Of a DNA stretch of 64,000 nt, positions 12,859 through 39,658 are shown piece by piece (the stretch's first letter is position 1; the number at the start of each line of letters is the position of its first letter). This DNA comes from Acidobacteriota bacterium (GTDB lineage: Bacteria > Acidobacteriota > Thermoanaerobaculia > Gp7-AA8). A model generated the notes under the pieces. That model saw nothing but the letters and a program-made list of their open reading frames with translations. It ran no database searches and had not been told where the DNA came from. The stretch covers positions 63,587 through 127,586 of the forward strand of contig JAFATB010000014.1 in NCBI GenBank assembly GCA_019244185.1. Direction: 5' to 3'. The position numbers and the translations under genes are program-made.

Positions 12859-14067
12859 TCAGAGTCTAGCGGCCCGCCGCAGCACCGCCAACGTTTCGTC
12901 CGCCGCGCGCGACCACTGGAACTCCGCGGCACGCGCGCGCCCGCGCGTCGCGAGCTCCGCGCGCAGCGCGTCGTCATGCAGCACGCGCGCGAGCAGCGTC
13001 GTCAGCGCATCGACGTCGGTCGGTTCGAAGTACAACGCCGCGTCGCCGCCGATTTCCGGCAGCGACGAGCTCCGCGCGGCGATCGACGGCACGCCATGCG
13101 CCATTGCCTCGAGCAGCGGAAAGCCGAAGCCCTCGTAGAGCGACGGAAAGACGAACGCCTCCGCGTGCTGATAGACCGTCGCCAGCTGCGACGCGCGCAG
13201 ATAGTCGAGGTGCACGATGCCGGGTCCTCGCAATCGTCGCGCGATCGCTTCCGACTTCCAGCCGATCTTGCCGACCACGACGAGCTTGCCGTCATAGCTC
13301 GCGCGGATGCGTTCGTACGCATCGAGCAGCGTGCCGAGGTTCTTGCGCGGCTCGATCGTGCTGACGAAGAGGATGTAGCGCGAGGGCAGTCCGTCGACCG
13401 GCTCCGCGGGCGGGAGCGCGCCGAGGCCGGAGTGGATCGCGAAGGCGCGCGAGGGATCGACGGCGTAGTAGGCGAGGAGATCCCGGCGCGTCGACTCGGA
13501 GACGCAGACGATCGCGTCGGCGACGGCGATCTCGCGCAGCATCTGCCGTTCGAGATTGTCGAGGGTCTCCTTTTGCAGCAGCTCGGGAAAACGCTTGTAG
13601 GTGAGGTCGTGAATCGTGATCACGCGACGCCGCGCGACCGCGCCGTGCAGCCGCGGCAGAAAGTAGTTCGCGCCGAAGAAGACGTCGCAGCCGGCGAGCG
13701 CGAGCCACGCGACGTACGCGGCGGCGGTGAGCGGGCGATCGAAGCGGCCGATGCTCTGTCCGCGCAGATCGAACGTGCAGAGCCTCGCGTTCGCAGGAAG
13801 CGAAGCATGCAGATGCGGCCCGAGATCCGTGGCGCGCGCGTCGCCGAAGAGCAGCAGCTCGATGTCGTCGTGTTTCGCGAGCTCATGCAGCAGGTGATGG
13901 AGGTACCAGCCGACGCCGGTGAGCGGCTCGTAAAACGGGCGGATGTCGACGCCGATGCGCAGCTTGCGCTCGCGGCGCGACGCCGCACCCCATGCGCGGC
14001 GCGCGCGATCGGCGAGCGCCTGGCGTAGAGTGTGAACGACGACCACGGCTGTTCCGCGCAGCGACAT
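12859..14067 (-). CDS. glycosyltransferase family 4
   Basis: FPSLYEGFGFPLLEAMAHGVPSIAA motif. The true start may be downstream of 14067, which lies only 20 bp from the divergent gene. Confidence 0.7.
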   Translation of the reverse strand: MSLRGTAVVVVHTLRQALADRARRAWGAASRRERKLRIGVDIRPFYEPLTGVGWYLHHLLHELAKHDDIELLLFGDARATDLGPHLHASLPANARLCTFDLRGQSIGRFDRPLTAAAYVAWLALAGCDVFFGANYFLPRLHGAVARRRVITIHDLTYKRFPELLQKETLDNLERQMLREIAVADAIVCVSESTRRDLLAYYAVDPSRAFAIHSGLGALPPAEPVDGLPSRYILFVSTIEPRKNLGTLLDAYERIRASYDGKLVVVGKIGWKSEAIARRLRGPGIVHLDYLRASQLATVYQHAEAFVFPSLYEGFGFPLLEAMAHGVPSIAARSSSLPEIGGDAALYFEPTDVDALTTLLARVLHDDALRAELATRGRARAAEFQWSRAADETLAVLRRAARL

Positions 14068-15359: not shown

Positions 15360-15920
15360 ATGAACGACATCATCAGTTTCGACGAGATCGACGAACACGG
15401 GTCGCAGACCGTGCGCGGCGCGTACGACGTTCCGCCCGCGGAGCTCGACCGCGACGAGGCGGCCGGCGGTGCGCGCGTCGAGATCCAGGCGACCGTCGCG
15501 AAGGGCGATCTCGAAGGGGAGTACGTCGCCGACGGCACCGCCGTCGTCACGGCCGACCTCGAGTGTTCGCGCTGCGTCGAGCCGTATCCGTTTGCGAACA
15601 CTTCCGGCTTTCACGTAAGATTCCGCCCTCGTCTCGAGGTCTCCGAGGAGAACGAGGAGATCGAGATCACCGACAAGGAAGAGCTGGACGTTGAGTTCTA
15701 CACGGAACGAACGATCCCGCTGCGCGAGTTCGCGCTCGAGCAGGTCCAGCTGGCGATCCCGATGAAGCCTCTGTGCGACGAGAACTGCCTCGGCCTTTGC
15801 CCCACATGCGGCGCCGTCCGCTCGCGCGAGAAGTGCTCGTGCGAGAACTCCATCGTCGATGAACGATGGGGCGCGCTGCAGGGCATTCGCGAGGAGCTGT
15901 CGAAGAAGAAAGACGTTTAA
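15360..15920 (+). CDS. yceD: YceD/DUF177 family protein (23S rRNA accumulation protein)
   Basis: C-terminal CxxC...CxxC (CDENCLGLCPTCG). Its conserved position immediately upstream of rpmF-plsX. Confidence 0.75.
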   Translation: MNDIISFDEIDEHGSQTVRGAYDVPPAELDRDEAAGGARVEIQATVAKGDLEGEYVADGTAVVTADLECSRCVEPYPFANTSGFHVRFRPRLEVSEENEEIEITDKEELDVEFYTERTIPLREFALEQVQLAIPMKPLCDENCLGLCPTCGAVRSREKCSCENSIVDERWGALQGIREELSKKKDV

Positions 15921-15941
15921 CCTCAATCAGGAGTCATCACC

Positions 15942-16127
15942 ATGCCGAATCCCAAACGACGCCATTCGAAGGCGAGAACCCGCTCGCGCCGCGCGCACGA
16001 CTTCCTCGACGCGAAGTCGCTCTCGACGTGCCCGCAGTGCCACGAGGCGAAGGAGCCGCACCGCGTCTGCCCGAAGTGCGGGTACTACAAGGGCCGCGAA
16101 GTCCTCACCGTCAAGGACGCGCTCTAG
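15942..16127 (+). CDS. rpmF: 50S ribosomal protein L32
   Basis: MPNPKRRHSKARTRSRRAH...CPQCHEAKEPHRVCPKCGYY, 61 aa. Confidence 0.95.
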   Translation: MPNPKRRHSKARTRSRRAHDFLDAKSLSTCPQCHEAKEPHRVCPKCGYYKGREVLTVKDAL

Positions 16128-16139
16128 TTCCTCGACGCG

Positions 16140-17195
16140 ATGGCTGCTGACGGAACGCCTGCCGTCCGCATCGCGCTCGACGCGATGGGAGGCGACAACG
16201 CGCCCGACGAGATCATCAAAGGCGCGTTGCTCGCCGCCGGCGAGTCCCCCGTGGCCATCACGCTCGTCGGCCGCGAAGAAGTCATCGCGGAGAAACTGAA
16301 AGCCTTCGCCGGCGGCAATCCGTCGTCCGCGATCGACATCGCCGACGCGCGCGAAGTCGTGGAGATGGGCGACACCGCGCTCGCGCCGTTGCGCCGCAAA
16401 CGCAACTCGTCCATCCGCATCTGCGCGAACCTCGTCGCCGAAGGGAAAGCGGATGCGATGGTCTCCGCGGGCCACACCGGCGCCGCGATGACCAGCGCGT
16501 ACAAGGTCCTCGGCACGATCGAAGGCGTGAGCCGCCCCGCGCTCGCCGCCATTCTGCCGAGCGCGAAAGGGCATACCGTGCTGCTCGACGTCGGCGCGAA
16601 CGTCGACTCGAAGCCCGCGTATCTGCGCGAGTTCGCGGTCATGGGCCACTTCTACGCGCAGATGATCTTCGGCATCGAGGCGCCGCGCGTCGGCCTGCTC
16701 TCGATCGGCGAGGAAGAAGGCAAAGGCAACGAGCTCACGAAAGAGACGTTCCGCGTTCTCAAGGAAACGGGACTCAACTTCATGGGCAACGCCGAAGGGC
16801 GCGACGTCTTCAACGGCAACGCGGACGTCATCGTCTGCGACGGCTTCATCGGCAACGTCGTGCTGAAGGCAGGCGAAGCCCTCGGCGAGATGGTCAGCAA
16901 GATGCTGCGCGCCGAAGTCACGCGCACGCCGGTGCGCAAGGCCGGCGCGCTGATTCTCCGCGGCGCGTTCGACGACATCAAGAAGCAGATGGACTACTCC
17001 GAATACGGCGGCGCGCCGCTCCTCGGCGTCAACGGCGGCTGCATCATCTCGCACGGCCGCTCGAACGCGAAGGCGGTGAAGAACGCCATCCGCGTCGCGC
17101 GCGAGTTCGCCTCGAACCGCGTCGACGCGAAGATCCGCGCGAAGATCGGCGACCTGCACACGCGCGAGCACGCGTCGGCCATCCTCGCCCAGTAA
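16140..17195 (+). CDS. plsX: phosphate acyltransferase PlsX
   Basis: RIALDAMGGDNAP and GFIGNVVLK motifs, 351 aa. Confidence 0.9.
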   Translation: MAADGTPAVRIALDAMGGDNAPDEIIKGALLAAGESPVAITLVGREEVIAEKLKAFAGGNPSSAIDIADAREVVEMGDTALAPLRRKRNSSIRICANLVAEGKADAMVSAGHTGAAMTSAYKVLGTIEGVSRPALAAILPSAKGHTVLLDVGANVDSKPAYLREFAVMGHFYAQMIFGIEAPRVGLLSIGEEEGKGNELTKETFRVLKETGLNFMGNAEGRDVFNGNADVIVCDGFIGNVVLKAGEALGEMVSKMLRAEVTRTPVRKAGALILRGAFDDIKKQMDYSEYGGAPLLGVNGGCIISHGRSNAKAVKNAIRVAREFASNRVDAKIRAKIGDLHTREHASAILAQ

Positions 17196-17233
17196 GCGCG
17201 GGAAGCCGCGGGCCGCGCTATCATCCGCGCGCC

Positions 17234-18163
17234 ATGGAACACAACACCGCCTTCGTCTTTCCCGGCCAGGGCAGCCAGTACGCCGGCATGGGGAAAGACG
17301 TCGCCGAAAAATACCCGGCTGCGCGCCGCGTCTTCGACGAGATCGACGCCGCCCTCGGCTTCTCGATCTCGCAGCTCTGCTTCGAAGGTCCCGACGAGCA
17401 GCTCAAGCTGACGCAGAACACGCAGCCGGCCATTCTCGCCGTGTCGAGCGCGATTCACGCCGTGCTCGAAGAACGCGGAGCCGCACGACGCGATCTCGTC
17501 GCCGGGCATTCGCTCGGCGAGTACAGCGCCATCGTGAGCGTCGGTGGACTGACGCCGGCGGACGCCGCGAAGATCGTCCACGCGCGCGGCACGTTCATGC
17601 AGGACGCGGTTCCCATCGGCACCGGCGGCATGGCCGCGCTCATCGGCCCGAGCGTCGACGACGCGCGCGCGATCTGCGAGGAAGCGGCGCAGGGCGAGAT
17701 CGTCTCCGTCGCGAACATCAACGCGCCGGGACAGATCGTCATCGCCGGCACGAAAGCCGGCATCGAGCGCGCGATCGAAGTGGCGAAGAAACGCGGCGTG
17801 CGCCGCGCGCTGCCGCTGCCGGTCTCCGCGCCGTTCCACTGCGAGCTGATGAAGCCCGCGGAAGAGCGACTGCGGCCGATCCTCGACGACGCGCCGTTCA
17901 AGGACCTCTGGACCTCGCTCGTGTCGAACGTCGACGCGTCGCCGATCGGCACCGCGACGGCCGTGCGCAATGCGCTGCTGCGGCAGGTCGCGTCGCCGGT
18001 GCGCTGGGTCGAGTCGGTGCAGAAGATGGTGTCGATGGGCGTGAGGCGTTTCGTCGAAATCGGCCCCGGCAACGTGCTCACGGGACTCATCAAACGCATC
18101 GATCCGAACGTGGAGCTCGTGAACGTCTCGGACGTTCCGTCGCTCGAGGCATTTCTCGCATGA
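17234..18163 (+). CDS. fabD: malonyl-CoA:ACP transacylase
   Basis: FVFPGQGSQYAGMG with the GHSLGEYSA active-site serine motif. Confidence 0.9.
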   Translation: MEHNTAFVFPGQGSQYAGMGKDVAEKYPAARRVFDEIDAALGFSISQLCFEGPDEQLKLTQNTQPAILAVSSAIHAVLEERGAARRDLVAGHSLGEYSAIVSVGGLTPADAAKIVHARGTFMQDAVPIGTGGMAALIGPSVDDARAICEEAAQGEIVSVANINAPGQIVIAGTKAGIERAIEVAKKRGVRRALPLPVSAPFHCELMKPAEERLRPILDDAPFKDLWTSLVSNVDASPIGTATAVRNALLRQVASPVRWVESVQKMVSMGVRRFVEIGPGNVLTGLIKRIDPNVELVNVSDVPSLEAFLA

Positions 18164-18888
18164 ACATCGATCTCACCGGAAAGACCGCTCTCGTCACCGG
18201 CGCCTCGCGCGGCATCGGCGAAGCCATCGCGCGCGGGCTGGCGCAGTCGGGCGCGCACGTGCTCTGCGCCGCGCGCTCCGCGGAGCGCGTGAACGAGCTC
18301 GCCGCGCAGCTCGGCAACGCCACCGGCGTCGCGCTCGACATCGCCGCGCCCGACGCGCGCGAACGCGTGGCCGCGCTGGTAAAGGAGCGCGCCGTCGACA
18401 TCCTCGTCAACAACGCCGGGATCACCGAGGATGATCTCTTCATCCGCATGAAGCCGGAGGCGTGGACAAACGTCATCCGCACGAACCTCGACTCCGCGTT
18501 CGCGGTCACGCAGGAAGTGGTCAAGAAGATGATCCGCGCTCGCTGGGGCCGCGTCATCAACATCTCGTCGGTGGTCGGCCTGATGGGCAATCCCGGCCAG
18601 GTGAACTACGCGAGCTCGAAGGCGGCGATCATCGGCTTCACGAAAGCGCTCGCGCTGGAGATCGGCTCGCGCAACGTGACCGTCAATGCGATCGCGCCCG
18701 GCTACATTCAGACCGCGATGACCGACGCCCTCGGCGACGACGCGCGCGAGAAGCTCGCCGAGCGCATCGCCCTGAAACGCCTCGGCACGGTCGAAGACGT
18801 CGCGAACGCCGTCGTCTTCCTCGCGAGCGAGCAGGCCGGCTACATCACCGGCACGGTCGTCAACGTGAGCGGCGGCCTGTACACGTAG
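18160..18888 (+). CDS. fabG: 3-oxoacyl-ACP reductase
   Basis: TALVTGASRGIGEAIA Rossmann motif and the SDR catalytic YxxxK region. 4-nt overlap with fabD. Confidence 0.9.
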   Translation: MNIDLTGKTALVTGASRGIGEAIARGLAQSGAHVLCAARSAERVNELAAQLGNATGVALDIAAPDARERVAALVKERAVDILVNNAGITEDDLFIRMKPEAWTNVIRTNLDSAFAVTQEVVKKMIRARWGRVINISSVVGLMGNPGQVNYASSKAAIIGFTKALALEIGSRNVTVNAIAPGYIQTAMTDALGDDAREKLAERIALKRLGTVEDVANAVVFLASEQAGYITGTVVNVSGGLYT

Positions 18889-18903
18889 CGCTATACGTAG
18901 CGC

Positions 18904-21900
18904 TCACATCGCGGTGGCCATCTCGACGTAGCGGCACAAGCCGTTGACGAGCTTCATCTGCTCCGGCGTCTTGCACGCGACGTCGAGCAGCCGCGGATTC
19001 GCGACGACGACTGCCAGACAGCGCGCGCGGGAAATCGCGACGTTGAGCCGGTTGCGGCTGAAGAGAAAGTCGATGTCGCGCGGCAGCTCCGCGCCGCTCG
19101 ACGTGGCCATGCTGAAGAAGACCACCGGCGCCTCGCGGCCCTGAAACTTGTCGACCGTTCCGACCGGCACGTCTGCGAGGCCTCGCGCGGCGAGCGCCTG
19201 CGTGAGATGCCGCACCTGCGCGTTGTACGCGGCGACGACGAGAAAGCTCGTCGCGCGCAGCGGCGCCGTCGCGCCGTCGCTGTTCGTGAATGCGCCGCGG
19301 ATCATGCGCGCGATCTCGTCCGCGATGCGCGCTGCTTCCTCGTCGGACGACTGCGTGTTGCCTTCGTGCGCGACGGCGAGGAAGCGCAGGCCGGTCGCGC
19401 GCGCGCCGTCGATCGTCACCGCCTGCCGCGCGCAGCTCTCGTGCGAATGCAGCCGCGACTCGTAGACGACTTCGGAGACGAACGCGCAGACGTCGGGATG
19501 CATGCGCCGCGTGTGCTCGAGGAAGATGCCGCGCGACGGCCGCACGGTCGCGTCGTCGCCGAGGAGATGTTCGAGGACCGAGCACGCGGCGCCGTCGGGA
19601 TGCGAGCCTTGCGAAACCTGCGCGAGCTGCAGCGGATCGCCGAGGAGCACCACGTTGCGCGCGGACGTCGCGACGGCGAGCGCGGTCGCGAGCGACATCT
19701 GCCCCGCTTCGTCGAGAAAGAGATAGTCGAGCGACGCATCCATCGCGTCGTCGGAGAAGAGCCACGCGGTGCCCGCGACGAGCTGCATCGCGCGGTCGGC
19801 GCACTCCTTCGTTTCGCTGGTGGACTCGATCATCGGATTCGGCAGCTTCGAGACGAAGCGCGTCCGCGTGTCGGAGCCTTTCTTGAGGCCGCGCAACCAG
19901 TAGCCTTGCGCGCGTGCGACGTCTTCGACGGCATGCAGCAGGTTGTGAATCGCGGCGTGCGAGTTCGACGTCACGCCGACGCGCTTGCCGGCGCGCAGCA
20001 GCTTCACGATCGCGTGTGCGCCGTTGAACGTCTTGCCGGAGCCGGGAGGTCCTTGCACGAAGATGTACGAGTCGTCGAGCCGCTGCGCGGCGCTCGTGAC
20101 GTCGTCGCCGAGCGCGCCGTCGCGAACGCGCGGCTCGCGTGCGAGCAGGATGTCGTACGCGGCGCGGTACGTCGTCGCATCGCCGTCGCGTACGATCGAC
20201 GTTGCCAAGCGCTGCAACGCTTCGCGAATGGGCGCGGTGGAGATGTCGGGCTTCATGAAGAGCGCGTCGGGCGGCGGCAGGTCCTTCAGTTTCGGTCCGC
20301 GCCGCAAGCGCACGATGCCCTTCGCGTCGTCAATCGATTCGATCGTGCCCGCGGAGTTCGCGCGGTCGTGCACCGCGTCGCCCGGATCGAGCTTGTGCTC
20401 CTGCGGCGGAAACGTGTACGTGACGATGACCGACTTCTTGACCGGCTCGTCCGGCGTGTTCGGATCGGGCGCGAGTCCGCCGAGGCATTCGCTGTCGGCG
20501 ATCAGCTCCTCGTCGGTCATGTTCGTGCGGCGGTCGAACCAGCGCCACCACGCCGGCCGTTCCTCGCGCCGGTGGTAGTAGAGCAGTTGGGCGAGGAGCG
20601 GCATGCCGCGCGCAACGAGCTCCTGGAACAGCGCGTCGTTGCGCTGCTCCTCGGCGATGCGATCCTCGGCGCGCTCCTGCGCCGGCGGCGGCTCTTTCCA
20701 CGCCACGTCGTCGGGGCGGATCGACACGAGCCAGCGCCGCATCTCCACGATCGAGACGCAGTCTTCGCGGTTGTACGACTCGATCTCCGCGAGCATCGCG
20801 CGGTCGTTCGTCTCGAGCCACTGCTCGTACGCGAGCACGGCGCCGCCGGCGTCGGCGACGCCTTCCGACTTGCGCGTGAAGTAGAACGTCTCGATTTTCT
20901 TGAGGCCGTAGCTCGCGTGCGAGACGCGCATCCCCTGGCGGACGATCGACGCGAGGTCGACGAACGCCTCGCGGCGCAGCAGATCGTCGAGCTGCGCCTC
21001 GCGCGTGCCGTGCCGTCCCATCAGCCGCTCGAGCGACGACTTCTCCAGGCCGCCGTAGTGGTAGATGTGCGCGCCCGCTTCAGCGGTGAGCCGCGCGACG
21101 AGGAAGTCCATCACCGACTCGAATGACGCGCGTTCTTCCGCGGCGTCATGCGCCCACCACGCGCGGTACTGCGTCGAGCCGTTTTCCTCCCACGCCGCGC
21201 CGAACAGATACGTGATGCCGTCGCCGAGGAACGGATCGCCTTCGAGATCAAGAAAGACGTCGCCGGGGGAGGGGCGGGGCAGACGAAAGAAGCCGCGGTC
21301 TTTCTCGCGCGGCAGCAGCTCGAACGTGTGCTCGCCGGTGCGGCGCTGCTGCAACTGCAGGCGCGCCTGTTCGTGCAGCGTGACGAACGACTCCTCGGGC
21401 AGCTTGGCGATGCGCGTCGTCAGCGGCGACTCCGCGAGCGCGGTGAGCGTGTGGATGTCGCCGCGTTCGAGCCGCGTCACCTGCGCGCGCTGGATGTTCG
21501 CGACGAGTGAGAGATGATCGACCGCGCGCCAGTGCGCGGAACAATGCGCCCACCAGTCGCACAGCGCGCAGAACTCGACGGGATACGGCGCCGGCGCCCG
21601 GCCGTTCGCGACGAAGTGTTCGAGCGACGTCCGCACGTGCCGGTAGTACGCGGCAAAGTCGGCGACGCGAAACGACTGCCGCTCCTCGGTGCCGATGACG
21701 ACGTGCATCGACTCCGGCGCGACGCCCTGCAGCCGCGCGAGATGCATGCTGTAGTCGGCGAGCTGCAGCAGAAAGTGTGCGCGGACGCTGCGCGCGAGCT
21801 TCGTGTCGATGACCTCGTAGCCGTACGCGCCGAACGCCGGCGAGGGACGCTCGACGCGCATCAGCAGATCGGCGTAACCGATCCAGCGTCCGTCGAAGAA

Positions 21901-22224
21901 CGCGGCCTGATAGACATAGTCGGCGCCGGCCCGCATCGCGGCGAGCGTCTGCGTTTCCGCGCGGCGCAGCGCCTCGGGAGTCCACGGCGCGGGCTCGATC
22001 GCGACGACGCGCTTGCCGTCCGCGCGCAGCTTGTCGACGTACGCGCGCTCGTGCTCCTCGCCCTTGCGCGCGATCAGCTCGTCCATGGCGGACGGCGGCC
22101 GGTACGCGAGCGGCGCGACGCTGCCGCTGAGCGTGCCGCGATCGAGGAACGTCGCGTGATCGCAGCGCACGAACTTCGTGAGGTCGCTGGTGGCGAGAAC
22201 GAGGTCATTGCCGAAGAGCCGCAT
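18904..22224 (-). CDS. Multidomain nuclease-helicase: Cas4/RecB-like PD-(D/E)xK nuclease with Cys cluster, RNase H-like (TM0106-type) domain and Upf1/Dna2-like SF1 helicase
   Basis: N-terminal FCALCDWWAHC Cys cluster typical of Cas4/RecB nucleases. DVFLDLEGDPF... RNase H-like segment. C-terminal GPPGSGKT (Walker A), FLDEAGQ (Walker B), TRRMHPDVCAFVSEVVYESRL and VDKFQGREAPVVFFS...NVAISRAR (SF1 motifs V/VI). Start taken at the Met giving MRLFGND. The frame is open up to 22335. Confidence 0.75.
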   Translation of the reverse strand: MRLFGNDLVLATSDLTKFVRCDHATFLDRGTLSGSVAPLAYRPPSAMDELIARKGEEHERAYVDKLRADGKRVVAIEPAPWTPEALRRAETQTLAAMRAGADYVYQAAFFDGRWIGYADLLMRVERPSPAFGAYGYEVIDTKLARSVRAHFLLQLADYSMHLARLQGVAPESMHVVIGTEERQSFRVADFAAYYRHVRTSLEHFVANGRAPAPYPVEFCALCDWWAHCSAHWRAVDHLSLVANIQRAQVTRLERGDIHTLTALAESPLTTRIAKLPEESFVTLHEQARLQLQQRRTGEHTFELLPREKDRGFFRLPRPSPGDVFLDLEGDPFLGDGITYLFGAAWEENGSTQYRAWWAHDAAEERASFESVMDFLVARLTAEAGAHIYHYGGLEKSSLERLMGRHGTREAQLDDLLRREAFVDLASIVRQGMRVSHASYGLKKIETFYFTRKSEGVADAGGAVLAYEQWLETNDRAMLAEIESYNREDCVSIVEMRRWLVSIRPDDVAWKEPPPAQERAEDRIAEEQRNDALFQELVARGMPLLAQLLYYHRREERPAWWRWFDRRTNMTDEELIADSECLGGLAPDPNTPDEPVKKSVIVTYTFPPQEHKLDPGDAVHDRANSAGTIESIDDAKGIVRLRRGPKLKDLPPPDALFMKPDISTAPIREALQRLATSIVRDGDATTYRAAYDILLAREPRVRDGALGDDVTSAAQRLDDSYIFVQGPPGSGKTFNGAHAIVKLLRAGKRVGVTSNSHAAIHNLLHAVEDVARAQGYWLRGLKKGSDTRTRFVSKLPNPMIESTSETKECADRAMQLVAGTAWLFSDDAMDASLDYLFLDEAGQMSLATALAVATSARNVVLLGDPLQLAQVSQGSHPDGAACSVLEHLLGDDATVRPSRGIFLEHTRRMHPDVCAFVSEVVYESRLHSHESCARQAVTIDGARATGLRFLAVAHEGNTQSSDEEAARIADEIARMIRGAFTNSDGATAPLRATSFLVVAAYNAQVRHLTQALAARGLADVPVGTVDKFQGREAPVVFFSMATSSGAELPRDIDFLFSRNRLNVAISRARCLAVVVANPRLLDVACKTPEQMKLVNGLCRYVEMATAM

Positions 22225-22283
22225 GCCCGCTTTCGACACGCCGCGCAACCGCTTGTGGCGCGCGCCACCTTTCGCGCGGAAGC

Positions 22284-24497
22284 GTGTCGTCAAAGCGGGG
22301 GGAGTTCTTGGACATCGCAAGGGGATCCGCCGCACCGACGCGGCTCGAGCGCATCCTGCAGGCGTCGATCGACCGGAAGCGCAAGCTCGAAGCGCTCGCG
22401 CGGCAGGCCGCCGAAGTCGTCGCGCCGCCGCAAACGCAACCGCGCGCCGCGACGACTGGCGAGTGGCTGCCGCGGGGAACGAGCGCCGGCGTGCACGGCT
22501 TCGCCACCGGCGACTTCGTCTACGTCGGCAACAAGCTGCGCGCGCTGAACGGCTACGGCGTCGAGCCGTCGCTCATCAATCCCGCGCTCCTCGTCGACTC
22601 GACGAACGCCGACGCCTCGGGCAGTGACGTCTCGTACTGGCCGTCGTACACGAACCTCTCGCCATCCAGCCGCCGTGCGTATCTGCAGTGGCTCGCGGGC
22701 GGACGCAACGATCCAGAGATCTCGATCGGCTACGTCTTCGTCTTCTTCTACGGCCTCGAACGCCGCGTCTGCGAGTACGTGCGCGATCGCGGCTCGGACG
22801 CGGACGAGGTGCTCGCGATCGCGCACGAGGTCGCGCGTCTGCTCGACCTCTACGCGACGACGAGCCATTCGTTCGCGTCGTACGCGCGGGCGCTGCTGGA
22901 ATTGATTGCCACGATCGAGCCGCGCTCGCGCACGCTGCTGCGTGGACGCGACGACGACTACACGTACGGTCCGTCGCAGCGGCTGAAGCTCGCCCTAGGC
23001 GAGCTCGCCGTCGCGCACAAGCCGATCCCCGCCGCGCTCGCGTTGCGTTGGGTTCGCGCGTCCTACGCGCGGACGACGCCGATGAAACGCTGCGCCGCCG
23101 AATTCGAGCTGCTCTTTCACGTGCGCTACGCGACGCAGTTCGGCGATGGGCTCGTGGTCAAGCCGAACAAGACGTACGTCGACGCGACCTACTCTGCGGC
23201 GAGCAGCGCGCTCGACACGCTCGTCGTGACGCAGCAGCGCGTCCCCGACATCACGCAGCTCGCGCGTCCGATCGCGAAGCTCATCGCGCTCGCGCAGGAA
23301 TGCACGAACGCGCTCGATCCCTTCAGCCGCTTTCTCGGCCGCAACCCGCAAGGGCGGCAGTCGCTTTCGGCGTTCGCGCTGTTACCCGAGGACCTCGTGG
23401 AGGCGACGCCGTCCGCGGACGCGGCGTCGCTCGCGTCGCTGGTGCGTTCGCGACTCGACGGCGACGGGCTCGCGCTGCTCGGCGCGGGCGAGCTTCTGCC
23501 CTTCGTCCGGCTCGCGCGCCCGGGCAAAGTGTCGAAGAGCGAGTCGATGTTTCTCGCGCAGGCGCTCGAGAAGCTCGGCTACGGCATCGAGCCCGACGTG
23601 CGCCTCGGCGGTCCTGCATTCGACGTCAACGGCCGCGCGATTCTGTTCCGCCGTCTGCCGGATTGTCCGTCCGTCGCATCCGTTGAATATGCGCTGGCGA
23701 TGCTCTGCATGCGCCTCGGCGCGATCGTCAGCGCGGCGGACGACGACGTCTCCGCGGTGGAGCGCGCGCTCCTGCAGAAGCACATCGCCGACACGCTGCA
23801 ACTCTCCGCGGGCGAACGGCAGCGCCTCGCCGCGCATCTCGCGTGGCTGCTCGAAGAGAAGCCCGGCACGAGCGGCCTGAAGAAACATCTCGCCGCGCTG
23901 ACGACCGACGCGCGCCATCACATCGGCCGCCTGCTCATCACCGTTGCCACGACCGACGACGTCGTCGATCCGCGCGAGATGAAGATGCTCGAGAAGCTCT
24001 ACGCGCTCATCGGACTCGACACGGCCGCGCTCTACGCCGACCTCCACGCCGCGCTTGCGACCGACGACGAACCGGTCGCCGTCGATGCGTCGCCTGCCGT
24101 CGCGAAAGGCTTCGCCATTCCGCCGCGTGCGCCGGCGACGGCCATCGACATGAACCGCGTGCGCCTCAAGCTCGCGGAAACGCGGCAGGTGTCGTCGCTC
24201 CTCGCCGAGGTGTTCGCGGAGGAGGAAACGTCCGCGCCGGTGGCGCCAAAGGCCGCGCAGGCGAACGCGATCGGCACGCTCGACGCCGCGCAGTCGGAAC
24301 TGCTGCGGCGTCTCGCGCAGCGCGCCTCGTGGTCGCGCGACGACGTCGAGCATCTCGCCGGCGAGCTCGCGCTGCTGCCCGACGGCGCGCTCGAGGCGAT
24401 CAACGACTACGCGTACGCCACCGCCGGCGAGCCGGTGTGGGAAGACGAAGACCCGCTCACCATCAACACCAACGTCGCCAGGGAGCTCATCGCATGA
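22284..24497 (+). CDS. TerB-N / TerB / TerB-C domain protein (Shango SngA-like)
   Basis: N-terminal segment YWPSYTNLSPSSRRAYLQWL (TerB-N-like). Central bipartite acidic/helical TerB-like region (VEYALAMLCMRLGAIVSAADDDVSAVERALL ... DPREMKMLEKLYALIGLD). Acidic C-terminal TerB-C-like region. First gene of a three-gene cassette. Confidence 0.65.
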   Translation: MSSKRGEFLDIARGSAAPTRLERILQASIDRKRKLEALARQAAEVVAPPQTQPRAATTGEWLPRGTSAGVHGFATGDFVYVGNKLRALNGYGVEPSLINPALLVDSTNADASGSDVSYWPSYTNLSPSSRRAYLQWLAGGRNDPEISIGYVFVFFYGLERRVCEYVRDRGSDADEVLAIAHEVARLLDLYATTSHSFASYARALLELIATIEPRSRTLLRGRDDDYTYGPSQRLKLALGELAVAHKPIPAALALRWVRASYARTTPMKRCAAEFELLFHVRYATQFGDGLVVKPNKTYVDATYSAASSALDTLVVTQQRVPDITQLARPIAKLIALAQECTNALDPFSRFLGRNPQGRQSLSAFALLPEDLVEATPSADAASLASLVRSRLDGDGLALLGAGELLPFVRLARPGKVSKSESMFLAQALEKLGYGIEPDVRLGGPAFDVNGRAILFRRLPDCPSVASVEYALAMLCMRLGAIVSAADDDVSAVERALLQKHIADTLQLSAGERQRLAAHLAWLLEEKPGTSGLKKHLAALTTDARHHIGRLLITVATTDDVVDPREMKMLEKLYALIGLDTAALYADLHAALATDDEPVAVDASPAVAKGFAIPPRAPATAIDMNRVRLKLAETRQVSSLLAEVFAEEETSAPVAPKAAQANAIGTLDAAQSELLRRLAQRASWSRDDVEHLAGELALLPDGALEAINDYAYATAGEPVWEDEDPLTINTNVARELIA

Positions 24498-25837
24498 CGC
24501 AAAGCGAGACCGCGATCAAACCGAAGCACCGCGAAGCCATCATCCAGTCGTTGCGCGCCGGCGTCGTGCCGCGCGCGGGGCAGCAGCACATCCAGGTCGG
24601 ACGCCACGCCGAAGTGAAGGCGCTCCTCGGCGACATCGACCGCATCGCCGCGGGCGGCTCCGCGATCCGCTTCATCATCGGCGAGTACGGCTCGGGCAAG
24701 ACGTTCTTCCTGAACCTGATTCGCGCCATCGCGCTGGAGCGCAACCTCGTCGCCATCAACGCCGATCTCTCGCCCGACCGCCGCCTGCACGCGACCGGCG
24801 GCCAGGCGCGCTCGCTGTACGCGGAGCTGATGCGCAACCTCGCCACGCGCTCGAAGCCGGAATGCGGCGCGATGGCGAGCGTCGTCGAGAAATTCGTCAG
24901 CAGCGCGCTCGGCGAGGCGCGCGGCAGCGGACGCAGCGTCGACGAGATCATCCGCGCGCGGCTCGCATCGCTGCAGGAGCTCGTCGGCGGCTACGACTTC
25001 GCGCAGGTCATCGAGGCGTACTGGCGCGGCCACGACAGCGGCAACGAAGAACTGAAAGACGCCGCGCTGCGCTGGCTCCGCGGCGAGTACGCGACGAAGA
25101 CGGACGCGCGCGCGTCGCTCGGCGTGCGCACCGTCGTCAGCGACGCGAACGTCTACGATCAGCTGAAGCTCTTCGCGCGCTTCGTGCGTCTCGCGGGTTA
25201 CGCCGGGTTTCTGGTCGTGCTCGACGAGCTCGTGAACCTCTACAAGCTCGCCAACGCGCAGGCGCGCAACAGCAACTACGAACAGATCCTGCGCATCTTG
25301 AACGACGTGCTGCAGGGCAGCGCGGAAGGCCTCGGCGTCCTCCTCGGCGGCACGCCGGAGTTTCTCCTCGACACGCGCCGCGGCCTCTACAGCTACTCCG
25401 CGCTGCAATCGCGCCTGGCGCAGAACCAGTTCGCCGCGAACGGCTTCGTCGACTACAGCGGCCCCGTGCTCTCGCTCGCGCAGCTGACGAAGGAAGACCT
25501 CTACGTGCTGCTCGGGAACATCCGCAACGTCTACGCGTGCGGCGACGCCGCGAAGCATCTCGTGCCCGACGAGGCGCTCGAGGCGTTCATGCAGCACTGT
25601 TCGACGCGCATCGGCGACGCGTACTTTCGCACTCCGCGCAACACCGTCACCGCGTTCGTGAGCCTGCTCTCCGTGCTCGAACAAAACGCGCACGCCGACT
25701 GGCGCGAGCTCCTCGGCGCGGTGACGATCGCGCCGGAGCACAACCCCGATCTCGAAGGCGAGATCGTCGACGACGCGGCGCCGGCAGCAGGCACAGCGAA
25801 GGACGAGGACGACGACCTTGCCACCTTCCGCATCTGA
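24494..25837 (+). CDS. P-loop ATPase (Shango SngB-like)
   Basis: ATGA overlap with the upstream gene. Walker A GEYGSGKT and Walker B-like VVLDELVNL. The ORF-track start (23843) is inside the upstream gene. Confidence 0.65.
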   Translation: MTQSETAIKPKHREAIIQSLRAGVVPRAGQQHIQVGRHAEVKALLGDIDRIAAGGSAIRFIIGEYGSGKTFFLNLIRAIALERNLVAINADLSPDRRLHATGGQARSLYAELMRNLATRSKPECGAMASVVEKFVSSALGEARGSGRSVDEIIRARLASLQELVGGYDFAQVIEAYWRGHDSGNEELKDAALRWLRGEYATKTDARASLGVRTVVSDANVYDQLKLFARFVRLAGYAGFLVVLDELVNLYKLANAQARNSNYEQILRILNDVLQGSAEGLGVLLGGTPEFLLDTRRGLYSYSALQSRLAQNQFAANGFVDYSGPVLSLAQLTKEDLYVLLGNIRNVYACGDAAKHLVPDEALEAFMQHCSTRIGDAYFRTPRNTVTAFVSLLSVLEQNAHADWRELLGAVTIAPEHNPDLEGEIVDDAAPAAGTAKDEDDDLATFRI

Positions 25838-28013
25838 GGCGTCGTCGTCGTTCGCGCTGCTGCACGAGCGCGTGCGCCGCTGGATCTGGGACCAGCAATG
25901 GTCCGAGCTGCGCGACGTGCAGGAGCTCGCGATCCAGACGATTCTGCGCGGCGACGGCGACGCGATCGTCACCGCGGCGACGGCGGCGGGCAAAACGGAA
26001 GCGGCGTTTCTGCCGATCTGCTCGACGCTCGTCGGCGACGCCGCGCCCGGCGTGCAGGTGCTCTACGTCGGCCCGCTGAAGGCGCTCATCAACGATCAGT
26101 GGCGGCGGCTCGACGGCCTCTGCGAGTCGCTGGAGATTCCGGTGCATCGCTGGCACGGCGACGTCACGATGAGCGCGCGGCAGAAGCTCATCCGCGATCC
26201 GCACGGCATCCTGCTCATCACGCCGGAGTCGCTCGAAGCCTTGTTCGTGCGCCGCGGCAGCGAAGTCGGCCGCATCTTCGCGGCGCTGCGCTTCGTGGTC
26301 ATCGACGAGCTGCACGCCTTCATCGGCAGCGAGCGCGGCATGCAGCTGCAGTCGCTGCTGCACCGGCTCGAACGCGTGCTGCACCGCCGCGTGCGGCGCG
26401 TCGGCCTCAGCGCCACGCTCGGCGACATGACCGTCGCCGCCAATTTCCTCCGTCCGCCGAACGATCGCGCGCAGGCGCCCGCGATCGTGAAATCGGAGGA
26501 AGCGGGCACCGGCGTGAAGCTGCGCCTGTACGGCTTTCGCCATCCGCTGCATGCCGATGACGAGACGAAGAAAGAGAAAGACGATCCCACGCTCGCGTCG
26601 ATCGCGCGACATCTCTTCGAGCATCTGCGCGGCTCGAACCATCTCGTCTTCGCGAACGCGCGCGGCAGGGTCGAGGGACTCACCGACCGCCTGGCGCGCA
26701 TGTGCAACGAGGCGAAACTGCCGCAGGAGTTCTTCGCGCATCACGGGAGCCTCTCGCGCGAGCTGCGCTTCGAAGTCGAAGATCAGCTCAAGCGCGGCGA
26801 GCGTCCGCTGACCGTGATCTGCACGAGCACGCTGGAGATGGGCATCGACATCGGCGCGGTGAAGAGCGTCGCGCAGATCGGCGTTCCTCCCGGCGTCGCC
26901 GCACTGCGCCAGCGTCTCGGCCGCTCCGGACGCCGCGGCGAGCCCGCCATCCTGCGCATCTACATTCAGGAAGAAACCGTGACCGATCGCTCCGCCCCGC
27001 AGGATGCGATCCGCGCGACGCTCGTTGAAACCATCGCCATGGTGAACCTGATGCTCGAGAAATGGGTCGAGCCGCCGCTCGCGGAACTGGTGCACGGCTC
27101 GACGCTCGTGCAGCAGCTCCTCTCGCTCATCGCGCAATACGGCGGCATCACCGCCGCCGACGCGTACGCGCTGCTCTGCGCGAGCGGGCCGTTCCGCCAC
27201 GTCCCGCGCGCGATGTTCACGTCGCTCGTCGAGCAACTCGAAACGCGCGAGTTGATTCGCAGGGAGCGCGACGGCCTGCTGCTGCACGACGAGAAGGGCG
27301 AGAAGGTCGTCAACCATCACGACTTCTACAGCGCGTTCAAGAGTCCCGACGAATACCGCCTCGTGAGCGGCGGCCGGCAGCTCGGCACGCTGCCGATCGT
27401 GAATCCGGTCAGTGAAGGCTCGTTCCTCATCTTCGCCGGCCGGCGCTGGCGCATCGTCGCCGTCGACGCGGAGAAGCGCGTCATCGACCTCGTGCCGTCG
27501 GCCGCCGGCCGCCTCCCCATCTTCGATCCGAGCGATGGTCCCGACGTGCACGACCGCGTGCGCCGCGAGATGCTCGCGATCTACACGAGCGACGACACGC
27601 CGGTGTATCTCGATGCCGAGGCTGCCGATCTCCTGCATGAGGGCCGCCGCAACTTCGCGCGCTTCGCGCTCGCAAACACGAACTTCATCGCCCGCGGCGA
27701 CGGCGCGCTGTACTTTCCGTGGTACGGCACGCGCGCGATGAACACGCTCGCGCAGCAGCTCGCCGCGCGCGAGATCAAGGTCTCGATGGAAGGTCTCGCG
27801 CTCGTCGCGCTGCACATCACGCCCGACGCTTTGCGCGACGCGGTCGACGCGTGCGAGCGCGAGCGCCCCATCGACACCATCGCGCTCGCGGCGAAAGTGA
27901 AGAACACGCTCGAGGAGAAGTGGGACTGGGCGCTCGATGACGCGACGCGTTTCGCCTCGTACGCGAGCCGCAAGCTGGAGCGGAATCCCATGCCGTCCGC
28001 GCGAGCGCGCTAA
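25818..28013 (+). CDS. DEAD/DEAH-box superfamily-2 helicase (Shango SngC-like)
   Basis: TAATAAGKTEAAFLP (motif I), VIDELH (motif II, DEAH-like), SATLGD (III), helicase C motifs QRLGRSGRRGEP. 20-nt overlap with the ATPase gene. Confidence 0.75.
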   Translation: MPPSASEASSSFALLHERVRRWIWDQQWSELRDVQELAIQTILRGDGDAIVTAATAAGKTEAAFLPICSTLVGDAAPGVQVLYVGPLKALINDQWRRLDGLCESLEIPVHRWHGDVTMSARQKLIRDPHGILLITPESLEALFVRRGSEVGRIFAALRFVVIDELHAFIGSERGMQLQSLLHRLERVLHRRVRRVGLSATLGDMTVAANFLRPPNDRAQAPAIVKSEEAGTGVKLRLYGFRHPLHADDETKKEKDDPTLASIARHLFEHLRGSNHLVFANARGRVEGLTDRLARMCNEAKLPQEFFAHHGSLSRELRFEVEDQLKRGERPLTVICTSTLEMGIDIGAVKSVAQIGVPPGVAALRQRLGRSGRRGEPAILRIYIQEETVTDRSAPQDAIRATLVETIAMVNLMLEKWVEPPLAELVHGSTLVQQLLSLIAQYGGITAADAYALLCASGPFRHVPRAMFTSLVEQLETRELIRRERDGLLLHDEKGEKVVNHHDFYSAFKSPDEYRLVSGGRQLGTLPIVNPVSEGSFLIFAGRRWRIVAVDAEKRVIDLVPSAAGRLPIFDPSDGPDVHDRVRREMLAIYTSDDTPVYLDAEAADLLHEGRRNFARFALANTNFIARGDGALYFPWYGTRAMNTLAQQLAAREIKVSMEGLALVALHITPDALRDAVDACERERPIDTIALAAKVKNTLEEKWDWALDDATRFASYASRKLERNPMPSARAR

Positions 28014-29578
28014 AACTCGCGATCGCGCAGATGGAACGGCGAGTGTCCGCGCTGGATCGCGGGCGCCCAGACGACGGCGAGCTTCTCGCGCGGTCCCGCG
28101 AAGCGATGCGCGCCGCTCGCGAGCGTACGCGCGCCGGTGAACGGCGTGCCGTCGAGCGTGCCGCGCACTTCGCCGCGCTCGCTGACGATCGTGTACTCGC
28201 CCGGCACCGCGATGGTGAACGTGCCGTCGTCGCGCAGCCATTGTCCCGACGCGCGCAGGCGTCCCATGTCGAGAAAGTTCGCGCTGAGGAACGCGCGTCC
28301 CTGCGGCGGCCACATCGGGCCGTCCGCCTGCGCGACGTGCGTGCGCGTGCGAATCACATCCGCCGCGAGCGTGTCGGGGATCAGGCCGTGCGCCATCTGC
28401 GCGCGGGTGATGTTCTCGAGGACGTAGTAGAACGGGCGACGCCGATAGATCGTCTCGCCCTTGAGGTCGAGCAGCAGCTCGCCGGGATGCGTGAGCCGCA
28501 GCGCCTGCGCCATCATGGTCGTGTGCCAGCGCGTGTCGTTGCGGAACTGATTCGCGTAGTGCACGAGCGCGAGCAGCAGCACGACGACGGCGATCGCGAA
28601 CGCCTGCAGCGGATTGCGCGCGCGCACGAGCATCGCCGCGACGAAGATCGCCGCGAGCGGCATGAGCGAGAGCAGGTCGCGCGGCGAGATCAGCACCCAG
28701 AAGCCGCCCAGCGTGATGACGTACACGCCGATGGCGACGGCGAAGAAGAAGCGCGCGGAGTCGTGCGTCTTCGGACGCAGCCGCATCGCCGCGTAAACCA
28801 GCGCCGCCATCGCGAACGGCCACGCCACGCGGCCGATCCAGACGCTGCGCCGCGTCAGCACGATGTTCTCGTTGAACGTGAAGACGCACCACACCAGGCG
28901 ATCCCACGCGCCGAGCGCCACGAAGAGCACGACCAGGATCGCCGGCACGAGGACGAGGCCGCCCAGCAACGGCAGCAGCGGCGAGAGCGCATCGCCCCGC
29001 TTCTCGATCCAGCGCACGATCGCCGCGGCACCCGCGAGCGTCGCGAGGAGCAGCGTCGTCTTCAGCGAGACCGACATCGCGCATCCGAGGAGCAGGCCGG
29101 CGAGGAACGTCCAGCGCGGCGTCCACGGCTTCAGCGCGAGCACGACCAGTGCCGCCATCCAGAACGCGTTCCACAGATTGTCGGTGCGGTACTCGAGCGA
29201 CTTGAGAAAGAACGGCGGAAAGAGCGAGAGCAGCACCGCCGCCCACGCCGCCACGCGCGCGTCGTAGAGCCGCCGCGCGAGCGCATACGTCGCCCACACC
29301 ACGAAGGCGAAGAGCGCGAGCATCGGCACGCGCATCCAGAGCAGGATGTTTGCGCGCTCGCCGAACAGCGCGAGGATCGGCGCGGTCAGCAGATGAAAGA
29401 GCGGCGCGTGGTTGTCGAAGTAGTCGCGATACTGCACGAGCCCCTGCGTCCATCCCCACGCCACGTGCAGGTGCTGCTGCTCGTCGGAGTCGAAGCGGTA
29501 GCGGAAGAGCGCGACGAGGCGCAGCACGACCGAAGCCGCGCCCGCCGCCGCGAGCAGGATGCGTTCCGCTTTGCTCAA
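28010..29578 (-). CDS. GT-C fold membrane glycosyltransferase (ArnT/PMT-like), putative
   Basis: More than 10 predicted TM helices. Acidic loop motif RFDSDEQ after the first TM. Start placed at a TTG (29578), because the ORF-track N-terminus (to 29737) runs across the tRNA-Arg gene and is therefore not real. Confidence 0.45.
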   Translation of the reverse strand: MSKAERILLAAAGAASVVLRLVALFRYRFDSDEQQHLHVAWGWTQGLVQYRDYFDNHAPLFHLLTAPILALFGERANILLWMRVPMLALFAFVVWATYALARRLYDARVAAWAAVLLSLFPPFFLKSLEYRTDNLWNAFWMAALVVLALKPWTPRWTFLAGLLLGCAMSVSLKTTLLLATLAGAAAIVRWIEKRGDALSPLLPLLGGLVLVPAILVVLFVALGAWDRLVWCVFTFNENIVLTRRSVWIGRVAWPFAMAALVYAAMRLRPKTHDSARFFFAVAIGVYVITLGGFWVLISPRDLLSLMPLAAIFVAAMLVRARNPLQAFAIAVVVLLLALVHYANQFRNDTRWHTTMMAQALRLTHPGELLLDLKGETIYRRRPFYYVLENITRAQMAHGLIPDTLAADVIRTRTHVAQADGPMWPPQGRAFLSANFLDMGRLRASGQWLRDDGTFTIAVPGEYTIVSERGEVRGTLDGTPFTGARTLASGAHRFAGPREKLAVVWAPAIQRGHSPFHLRDREF

Positions 29579-29601
29579 GATGAAGAAGCCGCCGTTTTCG
29601 A

Positions 29602-29677
29602 TGGCGCGCCCTGAGGGATTCGAACCCCCAACCAGCGGTTCCGAAGACCGCTGCTCTATCCGTTGAGCTAAGGGCGC
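29602..29677 (-). tRNA. tRNA-Arg (anticodon UCG)
   Basis: Cloverleaf folded by hand: acceptor GCGCCCT/AGGGCGC, D-stem GCTC/GAGC, anticodon stem GCGGT/ACCGC with loop CTTCGGA, T-arm GGGGG-TTCGAAT-CCCTC, discriminator G and an encoded CCA. 76 nt. Confidence 0.85.
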
Positions 29678-29758
29678 GCAGGCGCCGCGCCATCGTACTC
29701 GACACGCCGCCGCTCCGTGAATAGAATGCGCGCCCACGCTGTTCCGGTGGTTCCTTAC

Positions 29759-29834
29759 GCCGATGTAGCTCAGTTGGTAGAGCAGCTGATTCGTAATCAG
29801 CAGGTCACCGGTTCGAGTCCGGTCATCGGCTCCA
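29759..29834 (+). tRNA. tRNA-Thr (anticodon CGU)
   Basis: GCCGATGTAGCTCAGTTGGTAGAGC 5' half. Anticodon stem GCTGA/TCAGC with loop TTCGTAA. T-arm ACCGG-TTCGAGT-CCGGT. Acceptor GCCGATG/CATCGGC plus T-CCA. 76 nt. Confidence 0.85.
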
Positions 29835-31044: not shown

Positions 31045-31057
31045 GAAGGACGGAATC

Positions 31058-37427: not shown

Positions 37428-37429
37428 CG

Positions 37430-38155: not shown

Positions 38156-38331
38156 TCTCGACGATCGTGATGGTCGCCGTCGTCGTGCTGCTCGCGTTCA
38201 CGCTCGCCGCGGCGCGGCGTTCGTGGCAGCGGCAGCTCGAACTGGAACGCGCAAACGAGACGATGCAGCGCGAGCTACAGCGCCACCGCGACACCGTGCA
38301 TTCGATTCTTCGGGAGTTGCAGAATCCATGA
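38152..38331 (+). CDS. small single-TM protein (59 aa), unannotated
   Basis: GTGA overlap with the motB-like stop. VISTIVMVAVVVLLAFTLAAA TM plus a charged helical tail. ATGA overlap with the next gene. Confidence 0.45.
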   Translation: MISTIVMVAVVVLLAFTLAAARRSWQRQLELERANETMQRELQRHRDTVHSILRELQNP

Positions 38332-39545: not shown

Positions 39546-39658
39546 ATGACGCTCCCACGCCGGCGACCGACGGCCTGCTCAGCTGCGCGATCGCCGCGGG
39601 CGTGCTCTGTCTGACGCTCGTCGTGCTCGCCGTGATCGCGCTCAGCGCGGCGTCGTGA
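39542..39658 (+). CDS. small hydrophobic peptide (38 aa), unannotated
   Basis: ATGA overlap with the vWA stop. MNDAPTPATDGLLSCAIAAGVLCLTLVVLAVIALSAAS is a single TM helix. Confidence 0.4.
   Translation: MNDAPTPATDGLLSCAIAAGVLCLTLVVLAVIALSAAS

Follow-up and report, generated by a model that had tools for sequence, protein, structure and literature searches.

A double-nuclease helicase of the TM0106 family co-inherited with a Shango defence cassette at an Acidobacteriota locus

The 64,000-nucleotide stretch of Acidobacteriota bacterium DNA analyzed here (GenBank assembly GCA_019244185.1, contig JAFATB010000014.1, positions 63,587 to 127,586; the whole stretch is called the window) carries on its minus strand a gene for a nuclease-helicase fusion, NucHel, placed between a group of fab genes and a Shango-like defence cassette. 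The locus raises the question whether NucHel is a core repair enzyme, a free-standing defence enzyme or a part of the neighbouring system. Comparison with related loci showed that NucHel and the Shango genes are co-inherited as a four-gene module, and this co-inheritance is what is new here, the fusion itself being already known. With moderate confidence, the context of NucHel is taken to point to an enzyme of defence or against mobile DNA whose function is linked with that of Shango in this genome. The features of the locus are collected in Table 1.

The cassette beside NucHel (22284-28013) is, to judge by PADLOC matches near full length, a bona fide Shango system consisting of sngA, sngB and sngC. 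NucHel was found head-to-head with sngA in 11/11 loci with readable flanks and an orthologue of at least 59% identity (L001, which is the window, and L004, L005, L006, L097, L099, L100, L101, L175, L176 and L177). The Shango side was constant among these loci and the outer flanks were unrelated. Also when the linkage was followed from the SngB side, 4/4 informative metagenome loci with an SngB at least 81% identical had NucHel. A first-pass annotation, made from the sequence alone, had described NucHel as divergent from a Shango-like cassette; the divergent position held, the neighbour being a genuine sngABC, but the treatment of NucHel as a separate gene gave way to that of a co-inherited four-gene module.

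A scan of one genome per species found at least 552 relatives of NucHel. Among the best 80 of these, representing diverse genome loci, Shango was beside the family member in 6/80, and five of the six loci were tight and co-directional. The gene order was sngA-sngB-sngC-nucHel in L012 and L082 and nucHel-sngA-sngB-sngC in L033, L063 and L090, nucHel and its immediate neighbour being 2-45 bp apart (in L063 this neighbour is a 93-aa ORF, aa standing for amino acids and ORF for open reading frame). The four genes look operonic in all five, which belong to distant lineages. When 87 family members were placed in a neighbour-joining tree, the Shango-linked ones were polyphyletic and occupied at least 3-4 separate places, and with the linked members so scattered the association appears either to have arisen repeatedly or to be old and often lost. 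All-against-all clustering of 1318 neighbour ORFs gave as recurrent neighbours only Shango genes and generic ABC ATPases; the Shango genes were the sole specifically informative gene families recurring beside NucHel homologues. The four-gene form is a variant fixed in this lineage and sporadic elsewhere, as most Shango systems and most members of the NucHel family are unlinked.

The starts of NucHel and sngA are 59 bp apart, and nearly all of this gap is a nested palindrome. The window, L100, L101, L175 and L177 each have a single copy of the pattern, at this place and nowhere else in the 2.8 Mb searched, and variant palindromes are present at the same place, 8-14 nt before the NucHel ATG, in L004, L005, L006, L097 and L099. 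The arm sequences do not change between loci but those of the spacers do; a compensatory change is seen in one pair only, and there is essentially no covariation. An RNA-structure reading was rejected, as covariation was missing and the fold was no better than shuffled (z=-0.97). For the same reasons, together with the invariance of the arms, a DNA operator is preferred, and the palindrome is probably a protein-binding site in the divergent promoter region. Such a shared operator would argue for co-regulation of NucHel and Shango. Scans for sigma-70 promoters and terminators at 18700-22600 found nothing.

The start of the short form of SngA is uncertain because the putative GTG overlaps an arm of the palindrome. 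SngA length varies within the clade, being approximately 705-737 aa in the window (22284-24497), L175 and L177 and approximately 1017-1077 aa elsewhere (L004 6739-9831, L005 6776-9904, L006 6620-9853, L176 4673-7726), the long forms having about 300 extra N-terminal residues that have no Pfam match. In L100 and L101 the short form is likewise suggested, by the small distance to the NucHel start.

Table 1. Positions of the NucHel gene, its predicted domains and the surrounding features in the window.
Feature	Position	Strand	Residues and evidence
NucHel, complete coding sequence, nuclease-exonuclease-helicase	18904..22224	-	ORF, translation, homologue N-termini, identical public protein
Cas4-type ('iron-staple') PD-(D/E)XK nuclease, aa 1-235	21520..22224	-	C21, C219, C222, C228; catalytic D119, E137, D140, K142; RecB-family Q154...Y158
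Helical linker with helix-hairpin-helix (HhH)-like signature (consensus GIxTLxxLA), aa 236-300	21325..21519	-	AlphaFold2 helices 246-296; conserved L238, L263, Q286, A287, Q290
RNase H-fold DEDDy 3'-5' exonuclease domain, aa 301-502	20719..21324	-	Exo I D326-x-E328; Exo III Y484-x3-D488; invariant D330, H386, Y388, H389, Y390, D413
Helical stalk (520-576) and beta-barrel (593-657), aa 503-700	20125..20718	-	Equivalent to stalk and 1B domain of Upf1/Dna2-type helicases; AlphaFold2, Foldseek
Superfamily 1B (SF1B) helicase core, aa 701-1106	18907..20124	-	Walker A GPPGSGK731T; Walker B D838-E839; Q842; motif V G1022-TVDKFQG; motif VI S1065-R1066; Pfam, PDB matches
54-bp nested palindrome GACAC-N15-GTGGCG-CG-CGCCAC-N15-GTGTC	22235..22288	.	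Ends 11 nt before NucHel ATG, overlaps putative sngA GTG start
sngA, TerB_N/TerB/TerB_C, 737 aa	22284..24497	+	Pfam; PADLOC SngA E=1.6e-89; start codon uncertain
sngB, BrxC/BrxD-type ATPase, 447 aa	24494..25837	+	Pfam BrxC_BrxD E=1.8e-156; PADLOC SngB E=3.8e-182
sngC, DEAD/DEAH superfamily 2 (SF2) helicase, 731 aa	25818..28013	+	Pfam DEAD, Helicase_C; PADLOC SngC E=2e-263
tRNA-Arg(TCG)	29602-29677	-	Right of the four-gene module
tRNA-Thr(CGT)	29759-29834	+	Right of the four-gene module

The NucHel ORF is intact, with an ATG at 22224, 1106 aa and a stop codon. Its longest version begins at a GTG at 22335 and has 1143 aa with the same end at 18904; the ATG at 22224 was accepted as the start because 20 of the 22 aligned homologues share this N-terminus, with the same MRL... 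beginning. The GC content of third codon positions is 0.87 in this frame, as is typical of real genes in a window of 69% GC, and public metagenome contigs hold a 100% identical protein (P0001) among more than 6000 relatives in public data, so that a chance reading frame is out of the question. The extent (18904-22224) and the size of about 1100 aa proposed in the first-pass annotation were thus correct, and the motif strings that it had picked out, EFCALCDWWAHC, GPPGSGKT, FLDEAGQ, VDKFQGREAPVVFFS and ISRAR, were all found in the translation.

The same annotation had divided the protein into a Cas4/RecB-like nuclease, an RNase H-like domain and an Upf1/Dna2-like helicase, and profiles, alignment and structure confirmed these three parts, the fuller description being a predicted Fe-S nuclease, an HhH-like linker, a DEDDy exonuclease resembling the PolB exonuclease, a stalk and barrel, and an SF1B motor. 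Domain annotation recovered the corresponding families. The NCBIfam profile TIGR03491 ('TM0106 family RecB-like putative nuclease') matched aa 11-499 with 261.8 bits (E=1.2e-77), which is above its curated cutoff of 97.45 and covers the full length of the model (profile positions 2-462 of 462). Pfam placed RNase_H_2 (PF13482) at aa 323-499 (E=4e-23) and AAA_12, AAA_30 and AAA_11 within aa 714-1077 (E 8e-28 to 7e-10). Sequence matches in the PDB were confined to the helicase, with IGHMBP2 (1.4e-16), Upf1 (1e-13), Dna2 (7e-10, restricted to the last helicase motifs at aa 990-1074) and also Sen1.

The catalytic motifs of NucHel were all invariant in an alignment of 97 homologues with 47-100% identity. 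The invariant positions included the Cas4-type cysteines C21, C219, C222 and C228, the nuclease residues D119, D140, K142, Q154 and Y158, the DEDDy residues D326, E328, D330, D413, Y484 and D488, and the helicase motifs GPPGxGK731, E839, Q842, R907, GTVDKFQG1029, R1059 and S1065-R1066. Also the stalk region has a conserved motif, YHRRExRPxWW (columns Y550, R553, E554, P557 and W560). The linker at aa 236-300, whose HhH character is suggested by its sequence signature, probably contacts DNA.

The AlphaFold2 model of the whole protein was confident (predicted local distance difference test score, pLDDT, 89.5; predicted template modelling score, pTM, 0.82). In this model aa 503-700, a region without any profile annotation, fold as a helical stalk and a beta-barrel. 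A full-length Foldseek search of the PDB gave Dna2 first (5EAN, E=6e-30, approximately 1230 columns, template modelling (TM) score 0.39-0.40, 12-14% identity), followed by IGHMBP2 and Upf1, which aligned with the C-terminal 600-700 residues (620-690 columns) and thus reached N-terminal of the RecA core. Because the latter alignments cover this much of the C-terminus, the stalk and barrel were matched with the accessory domains of Upf1 and Dna2. The comparison with Dna2 therefore held for domain order and fold; orthology or a close sequence relation came out negative, given the identity and TM-score above. The fold of the nuclease domain resembles the AddB and AdnAB nucleases, and also Cas4.

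Several observations weigh against a Dna2-like defence enzyme tied to Shango. In 74/80 of the genome loci the family member is not beside Shango, and outside the close clade 46/49 informative metagenome loci (SngB 61-72% identical) are without NucHel, three having it. Plasmid records with SngB number 686 versus 69 with NucHel, and in the two records with both, among those listed, the genes are far apart. The three-gene Shango protects alone when cloned (10.1101/2022.11.11.516204; 10.1101/2022.05.11.491447), and NucHel is therefore not generally required. The family members of L008 and L178 are in ordinary-looking neighbourhoods, the defence role of the TM0106 family is deduced from genomic context, and the full-length TM-score to Dna2 is low. 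Furthermore, the substrate of NucHel could be RNA instead of DNA, since RNA can be a substrate of Upf1-like helicases and the helicase half has MkoA as its best PADLOC match.

NucHel might then be a single-gene enzyme that, like Nhi and Hna, acts by itself in defence or against plasmids, and which only shares islands with Shango, type III restriction-modification (R-M) and other systems and does not cooperate with them. About 90% of the family members have neither a Shango neighbour nor another recurrent partner, most Shango systems are without NucHel, and a chain combining a motor and nucleases needs in principle no partner, just as the three-gene Shango works without NucHel (10.1101/2022.11.11.516204). 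Random co-location, however, leaves unexplained why the linkage holds in 11/11 loci over the range of 59-100% identity while the outer flanks change, and it is also at odds with the tight co-directional arrangements, in both gene orders, of five distant lineages and with the conserved palindrome in the shared promoter region. Nor does any other defence system recur beside NucHel at a comparable rate. Full autonomy is accordingly considered rather unlikely, although it is the strongest of the alternatives.

The loci outside Shango were surveyed with PADLOC and Pfam for 130 ORFs at most three genes from the homologue in 26 loci. The neighbours included type I and type III R-M, McrBC, BrxL, MmeI-type enzymes, JetD (Wadjet), a dGTPase, RES toxins and patatin. 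L011 had TIR, type III R-M and BREX nearby and L010 GmrSD and toxin-antitoxin pairs, while of the plasmid loci one had VapBC, an integrase and HNH, another WYL regulators and a restriction enzyme, and conjugation genes were seen adjacent. In L011 (4770-13402) and L013 (4991-13354) a type III Mod-Res pair is followed, co-directionally and with gaps of 60-120 bp, by the NucHel homologue as the last gene, and in L179 (1-11330) the homologue is the last behind an operon of DUF1156, DUF499/HEPN_Swt1 and helicase genes, with a 12-bp gap. The Mod-Res pairing echoes the published pairing of the nuclease-helicase Bad with a type III-like methyltransferase. On a Phenylobacterium plasmid (L093, NZ_CP101284.1, 5600-12333) the co-directional genes for multiubiquitin, E2/UBC, ThiF E1, DUF6527, a hypothetical protein and a TM0106 nuclease-helicase overlap or are separated by gaps of about 20 bp, and the NucHel homologue appears to be the final gene of this operon for ubiquitin-like conjugation.

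The distribution of the family is patchy. The genome relatives occur in Acidobacteriota, Actinomycetota, Chloroflexota, Eremiobacterota, Proteobacteria, Bacteroidota, Cyanobacteria and other groups, and the best 80 of them belong to at least 10 phyla, usually with one species per genus. Plasmids hold 60 full-length copies, and 26/69 of the matching plasmid records are typed conjugative. The two-nuclease module was found in 1,667 clusters (50% identity) at E<=1e-30 among 1.84 billion, and over half of the best 150 of those clusters have the full fused length of about 1100 aa. A 'distant' blastn search of E. coli with a Pseudomonas homologue gave no match, which is uninformative given the divergence. 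A phage origin was rejected, as there were 0 matches among 50,697 phage records and approximately 6 full-length copies in IMG/VR.

On its other side NucHel is convergent with yceD, rpmF, plsX, fabD and fabG (15360-18888), and 15 bp separate the stop codons of fabG and NucHel, in line with the convergence on fabG that had been noted in the first pass. Orthologues at 74, 69, 67, 64, 63 and 62% identity have wholly different genes on this side, namely a hypothetical gene with an ABC ATPase, a DnaE-like polymerase, a peptidase, two different CarboxypepD_reg proteins and a COQ7-like gene, and the outer flank was different in each of the seven orthologous loci with called genes. Conserved core synteny with yceD-rpmF-plsX-fabD-fabG was rejected, the linkage being found in this genome only. 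No fabH, acpP or fabF follows fabG in the window, and there is no terminator-like hairpin between the convergent fabG and NucHel. A search of the window for an acpP-like motif found nothing, so insertion into a fab operon is not demonstrated, and likewise no att-like direct repeat or integrase bounding the module was found in the window, so no defined insertion is shown. Because of the patchy occurrence across phyla, the carriage on plasmids and the absence of conserved synteny, NucHel is an accessory, horizontally moving gene and not a core one. The first-pass annotation had suggested horizontal acquisition, with a universal core repair gene of conserved synteny as the refuting case, and the patchy, plasmid-borne and defence-island-associated distribution, together with the unconserved fabG linkage, favours a horizontally acquired defence effector over such a core gene.

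The same evidence makes it improbable that NucHel is a housekeeping repair or replication enzyme, a bacterial end-resection or flap factor of the Dna2/AddAB type whose defence neighbours are incidental. Such a role would fit with Dna2 as the best structural match, with a nuclease resembling those of AddB and AdnAB, and with the repair-type neighbours of a few loci, which are a DnaE-like polymerase directly downstream (L005), LigD with a ligase (near L177) and LexA-like S24 peptidases (L004 and L005). It fits poorly with the finding that no repair or core gene is in conserved synteny, with the patchy spread that extends to conjugative plasmids, and with the many restriction, BREX, Wadjet and toxin genes among the neighbours; also the authors of the Bad study considered it unlikely that a DNA2-like enzyme has a housekeeping role in bacteria (PMC7430649). 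The polymerase of L005 (13336-16647) is a DnaE-type pol III alpha homologue (PHP, DNA_pol3_alpha, HHH_6) on the same strand, 30 bp after the nuclease-helicase, and with the S24 peptidase nearby the arrangement hints at a damage-response link, other loci being without it.

That the enzyme serves its carrying element rather than the host, in plasmid or island maintenance, inter-element competition or anti-defence, is very improbable, for even though it is frequent on plasmids, conjugative ones included, beside integrase, VapBC and conjugation genes, most copies are chromosomal without adjacent integrase or transfer genes, neither att repeat nor integrase bounds the module in the window, and phages practically lack it.

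As an enzyme tied to Shango, NucHel would be a Dna2-like machine that processes DNA ends of mobile elements with a single polypeptide. By analogy with Dna2 and Bad, a free 5' single-stranded end or flap would be the loading site of the motor, which would then travel 5'->3' behind the Fe-S nuclease; the nuclease would cut the strand being tracked. The DEDDy domain would meanwhile trim 3' ends, and neither strand of an exposed DNA end would survive. An Fe-S cluster, 5'-3' translocation and endonuclease threading of a 5' single-stranded end are predicted from conserved residues and the fold. The ends attacked could be the termini of phage genomes, intermediates of replication or conjugation, or breaks made by a partner system. 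Pfam found no nuclease domain in the Shango proteins of the window, and within the module NucHel could supply the nuclease step that SngA (TerB), SngB (ATPase) and SngC (SF2 helicase) visibly lack. A NucHel-type protein might similarly have been plugged in as the terminal gene behind other ATPase or helicase defence operons. Tentatively, and with doubt prevailing, NucHel could be the nuclease effector of a Shango subtype, a fourth subunit 'SngD', and more generally a portable Dna2-like double-nuclease motor for several unrelated sensors built on ATPases or helicases, namely Shango, type III R-M, DUF1156/DUF499 and E1/E2 ubiquitin-like systems.

A literature search found no description of the mechanism of Shango. 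A conserved partner that has two nucleases and a motor, and that is operonic in some loci, offers a concrete, testable hypothesis for its effector step, and if the SngD reading is true, the four-gene module would reveal how Shango kills phage DNA. Linked genes are present in the culturable hosts Bradyrhizobium nitroreducens TSA1 (L082) and Mucilaginibacter phenanthrenivorans (L090). Anti-mobile-DNA defence is the likely role of the TM0106 family, and assigning it would, independently of Shango, cover a large annotated family whose closest structural relative is the eukaryotic Dna2. Should NucHel simply be an independent defence gene, it would be a routine addition to the nuclease-helicase defence candidates.

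The remaining features of the window lie further out. The divergent pair of tRNA-Arg and tRNA-Thr sits just right of a PMT_2 glycosyltransferase gene, and no att-like repeat of either was present at 18-30 kb. A 575-aa ORF at 28010-29737 overruns tRNA-Arg, public gene calls having 522 aa. The co-directional ORFs at 30451-41266 belong to no Pfam or PADLOC family and could be another system adjoining the tRNA pair; they include a 1428-aa protein (31058-35344) with a sub-threshold Tubulin_2 match only and a 516-aa protein (35877-37427) with a weak ZorA/MotA-ExbB-like match (E=2e-4). Left of the fab operon, three consecutive GT4 glycosyltransferases (window 12859-14067 (-) and neighbours; L001 18179-21388) match PF20706 'GT4-conflict' together with ordinary GT4 models.

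Among known proteins, NucHel belongs to the TM0106/TIGR03491/COG2251 family, from which it has no structural difference. COG2251 is family F.13 of the RNase H-like proteins, described as a pair of Cas4-like (DUF83) and PF13482 domains with a frequent AAA (helicase) extension (Majorek et al. 2014, PMC3985635). Both family traits are present, the Cas4-like PD-(D/E)XK domain with four cluster cysteines being followed by the PF13482 domain, and public homologues, RefSeq annotation included, carry the TM0106 name. As the family and the architecture are already annotated (TIGR03491) and described (PMC3985635), the fusion itself is not new. A literature search, which did not include the Anantharaman 2012 Ter paper, found no paper on a tested function of the family, its defence-island context or a link to Shango.

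None of the PADLOC and NCBIfam defence models matched NucHel beyond the generic helicase core, leaving the N-terminal 700 aa uncovered. The best PADLOC match was the Upf1-like RNA helicase MkoA of Mokosh (E=1e-40, aa 720-1095 against profile positions 633-1092 of 1112), in the helicase half only; membership in Mokosh was rejected because the N-terminal 700 aa were unmatched and no PLD nuclease (MkoB) was present in NucHel or its neighbours. A CRISPR-associated Cas4 was rejected as well, since the PADLOC Cas4 match was weak (E=0.012) and there were no cas genes among the neighbours, the fold being similar. Also ApsAB/DdmDE, found near Shango in E. coli islands, were set aside as a different family with an SF2 helicase and a C-terminal nuclease. 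No Nhi match was found in PADLOC/NCBIfam at E<=0.1, the presence of an Nhi model in those library versions being unconfirmed. Nhi has an N-terminal nuclease and an Upf1-like SF1 helicase. Together with Hna, DdmD/ApsA, Hachiman HamAB and Gabija it has a common logic with NucHel, a helicase motor joined with a nuclease that degrades the nucleic acid of the invader, but none of them has the double nuclease of Cas4 and DEDDy type.

Shango is defined as the three genes SngA, SngB and SngC (Millman et al. 2022; Johnson et al. 2022/2023), and NucHel would make it a four-gene subtype. The Sng models gave no match to NucHel, which is not a defined Shango component. In P. aeruginosa PA14 the gene PA14_RS11730 for a 'large multi-domain helicase' adjoins Shango and was left out of the cloned system (10.1101/2022.11.11.516204). 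Dna2 (PDB 5EAN, 5EAW, 5EAX) has, like NucHel, an N-terminal iron-staple RecB-family nuclease and a C-terminal SF1B helicase with a beta-barrel and stalk, but it is without the DEDDy exonuclease domain and serves as an essential core factor of replication and repair, the NucHel gene being accessory and mobile.

Bad of Geobacillus stearothermophilus is a protein of 1245 aa with an Fe-S cluster, a 5'-3' helicase and a single-stranded DNA endonuclease, and it prefers 5' overhangs (Wilkinson et al. 2020, PMC7430649). Its gene has a sporadic distribution and adjoins a type III-like methyltransferase gene (PMC7430649). Bad and NucHel are alike in having an iron-staple nuclease, a central domain and an SF1B helicase, likened here by the published description of Bad, and L011 and L013 have a type III neighbour as Bad does. 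They differ in the central domain, that of Bad being without detectable homology (PMC7430649) and that of NucHel readily recognized as PF13482. The 'second class in Mycobacteria and Rhodococcus' of the Bad paper might be the TM0106 family, and by analogy Bad is the best biochemical model for NucHel.

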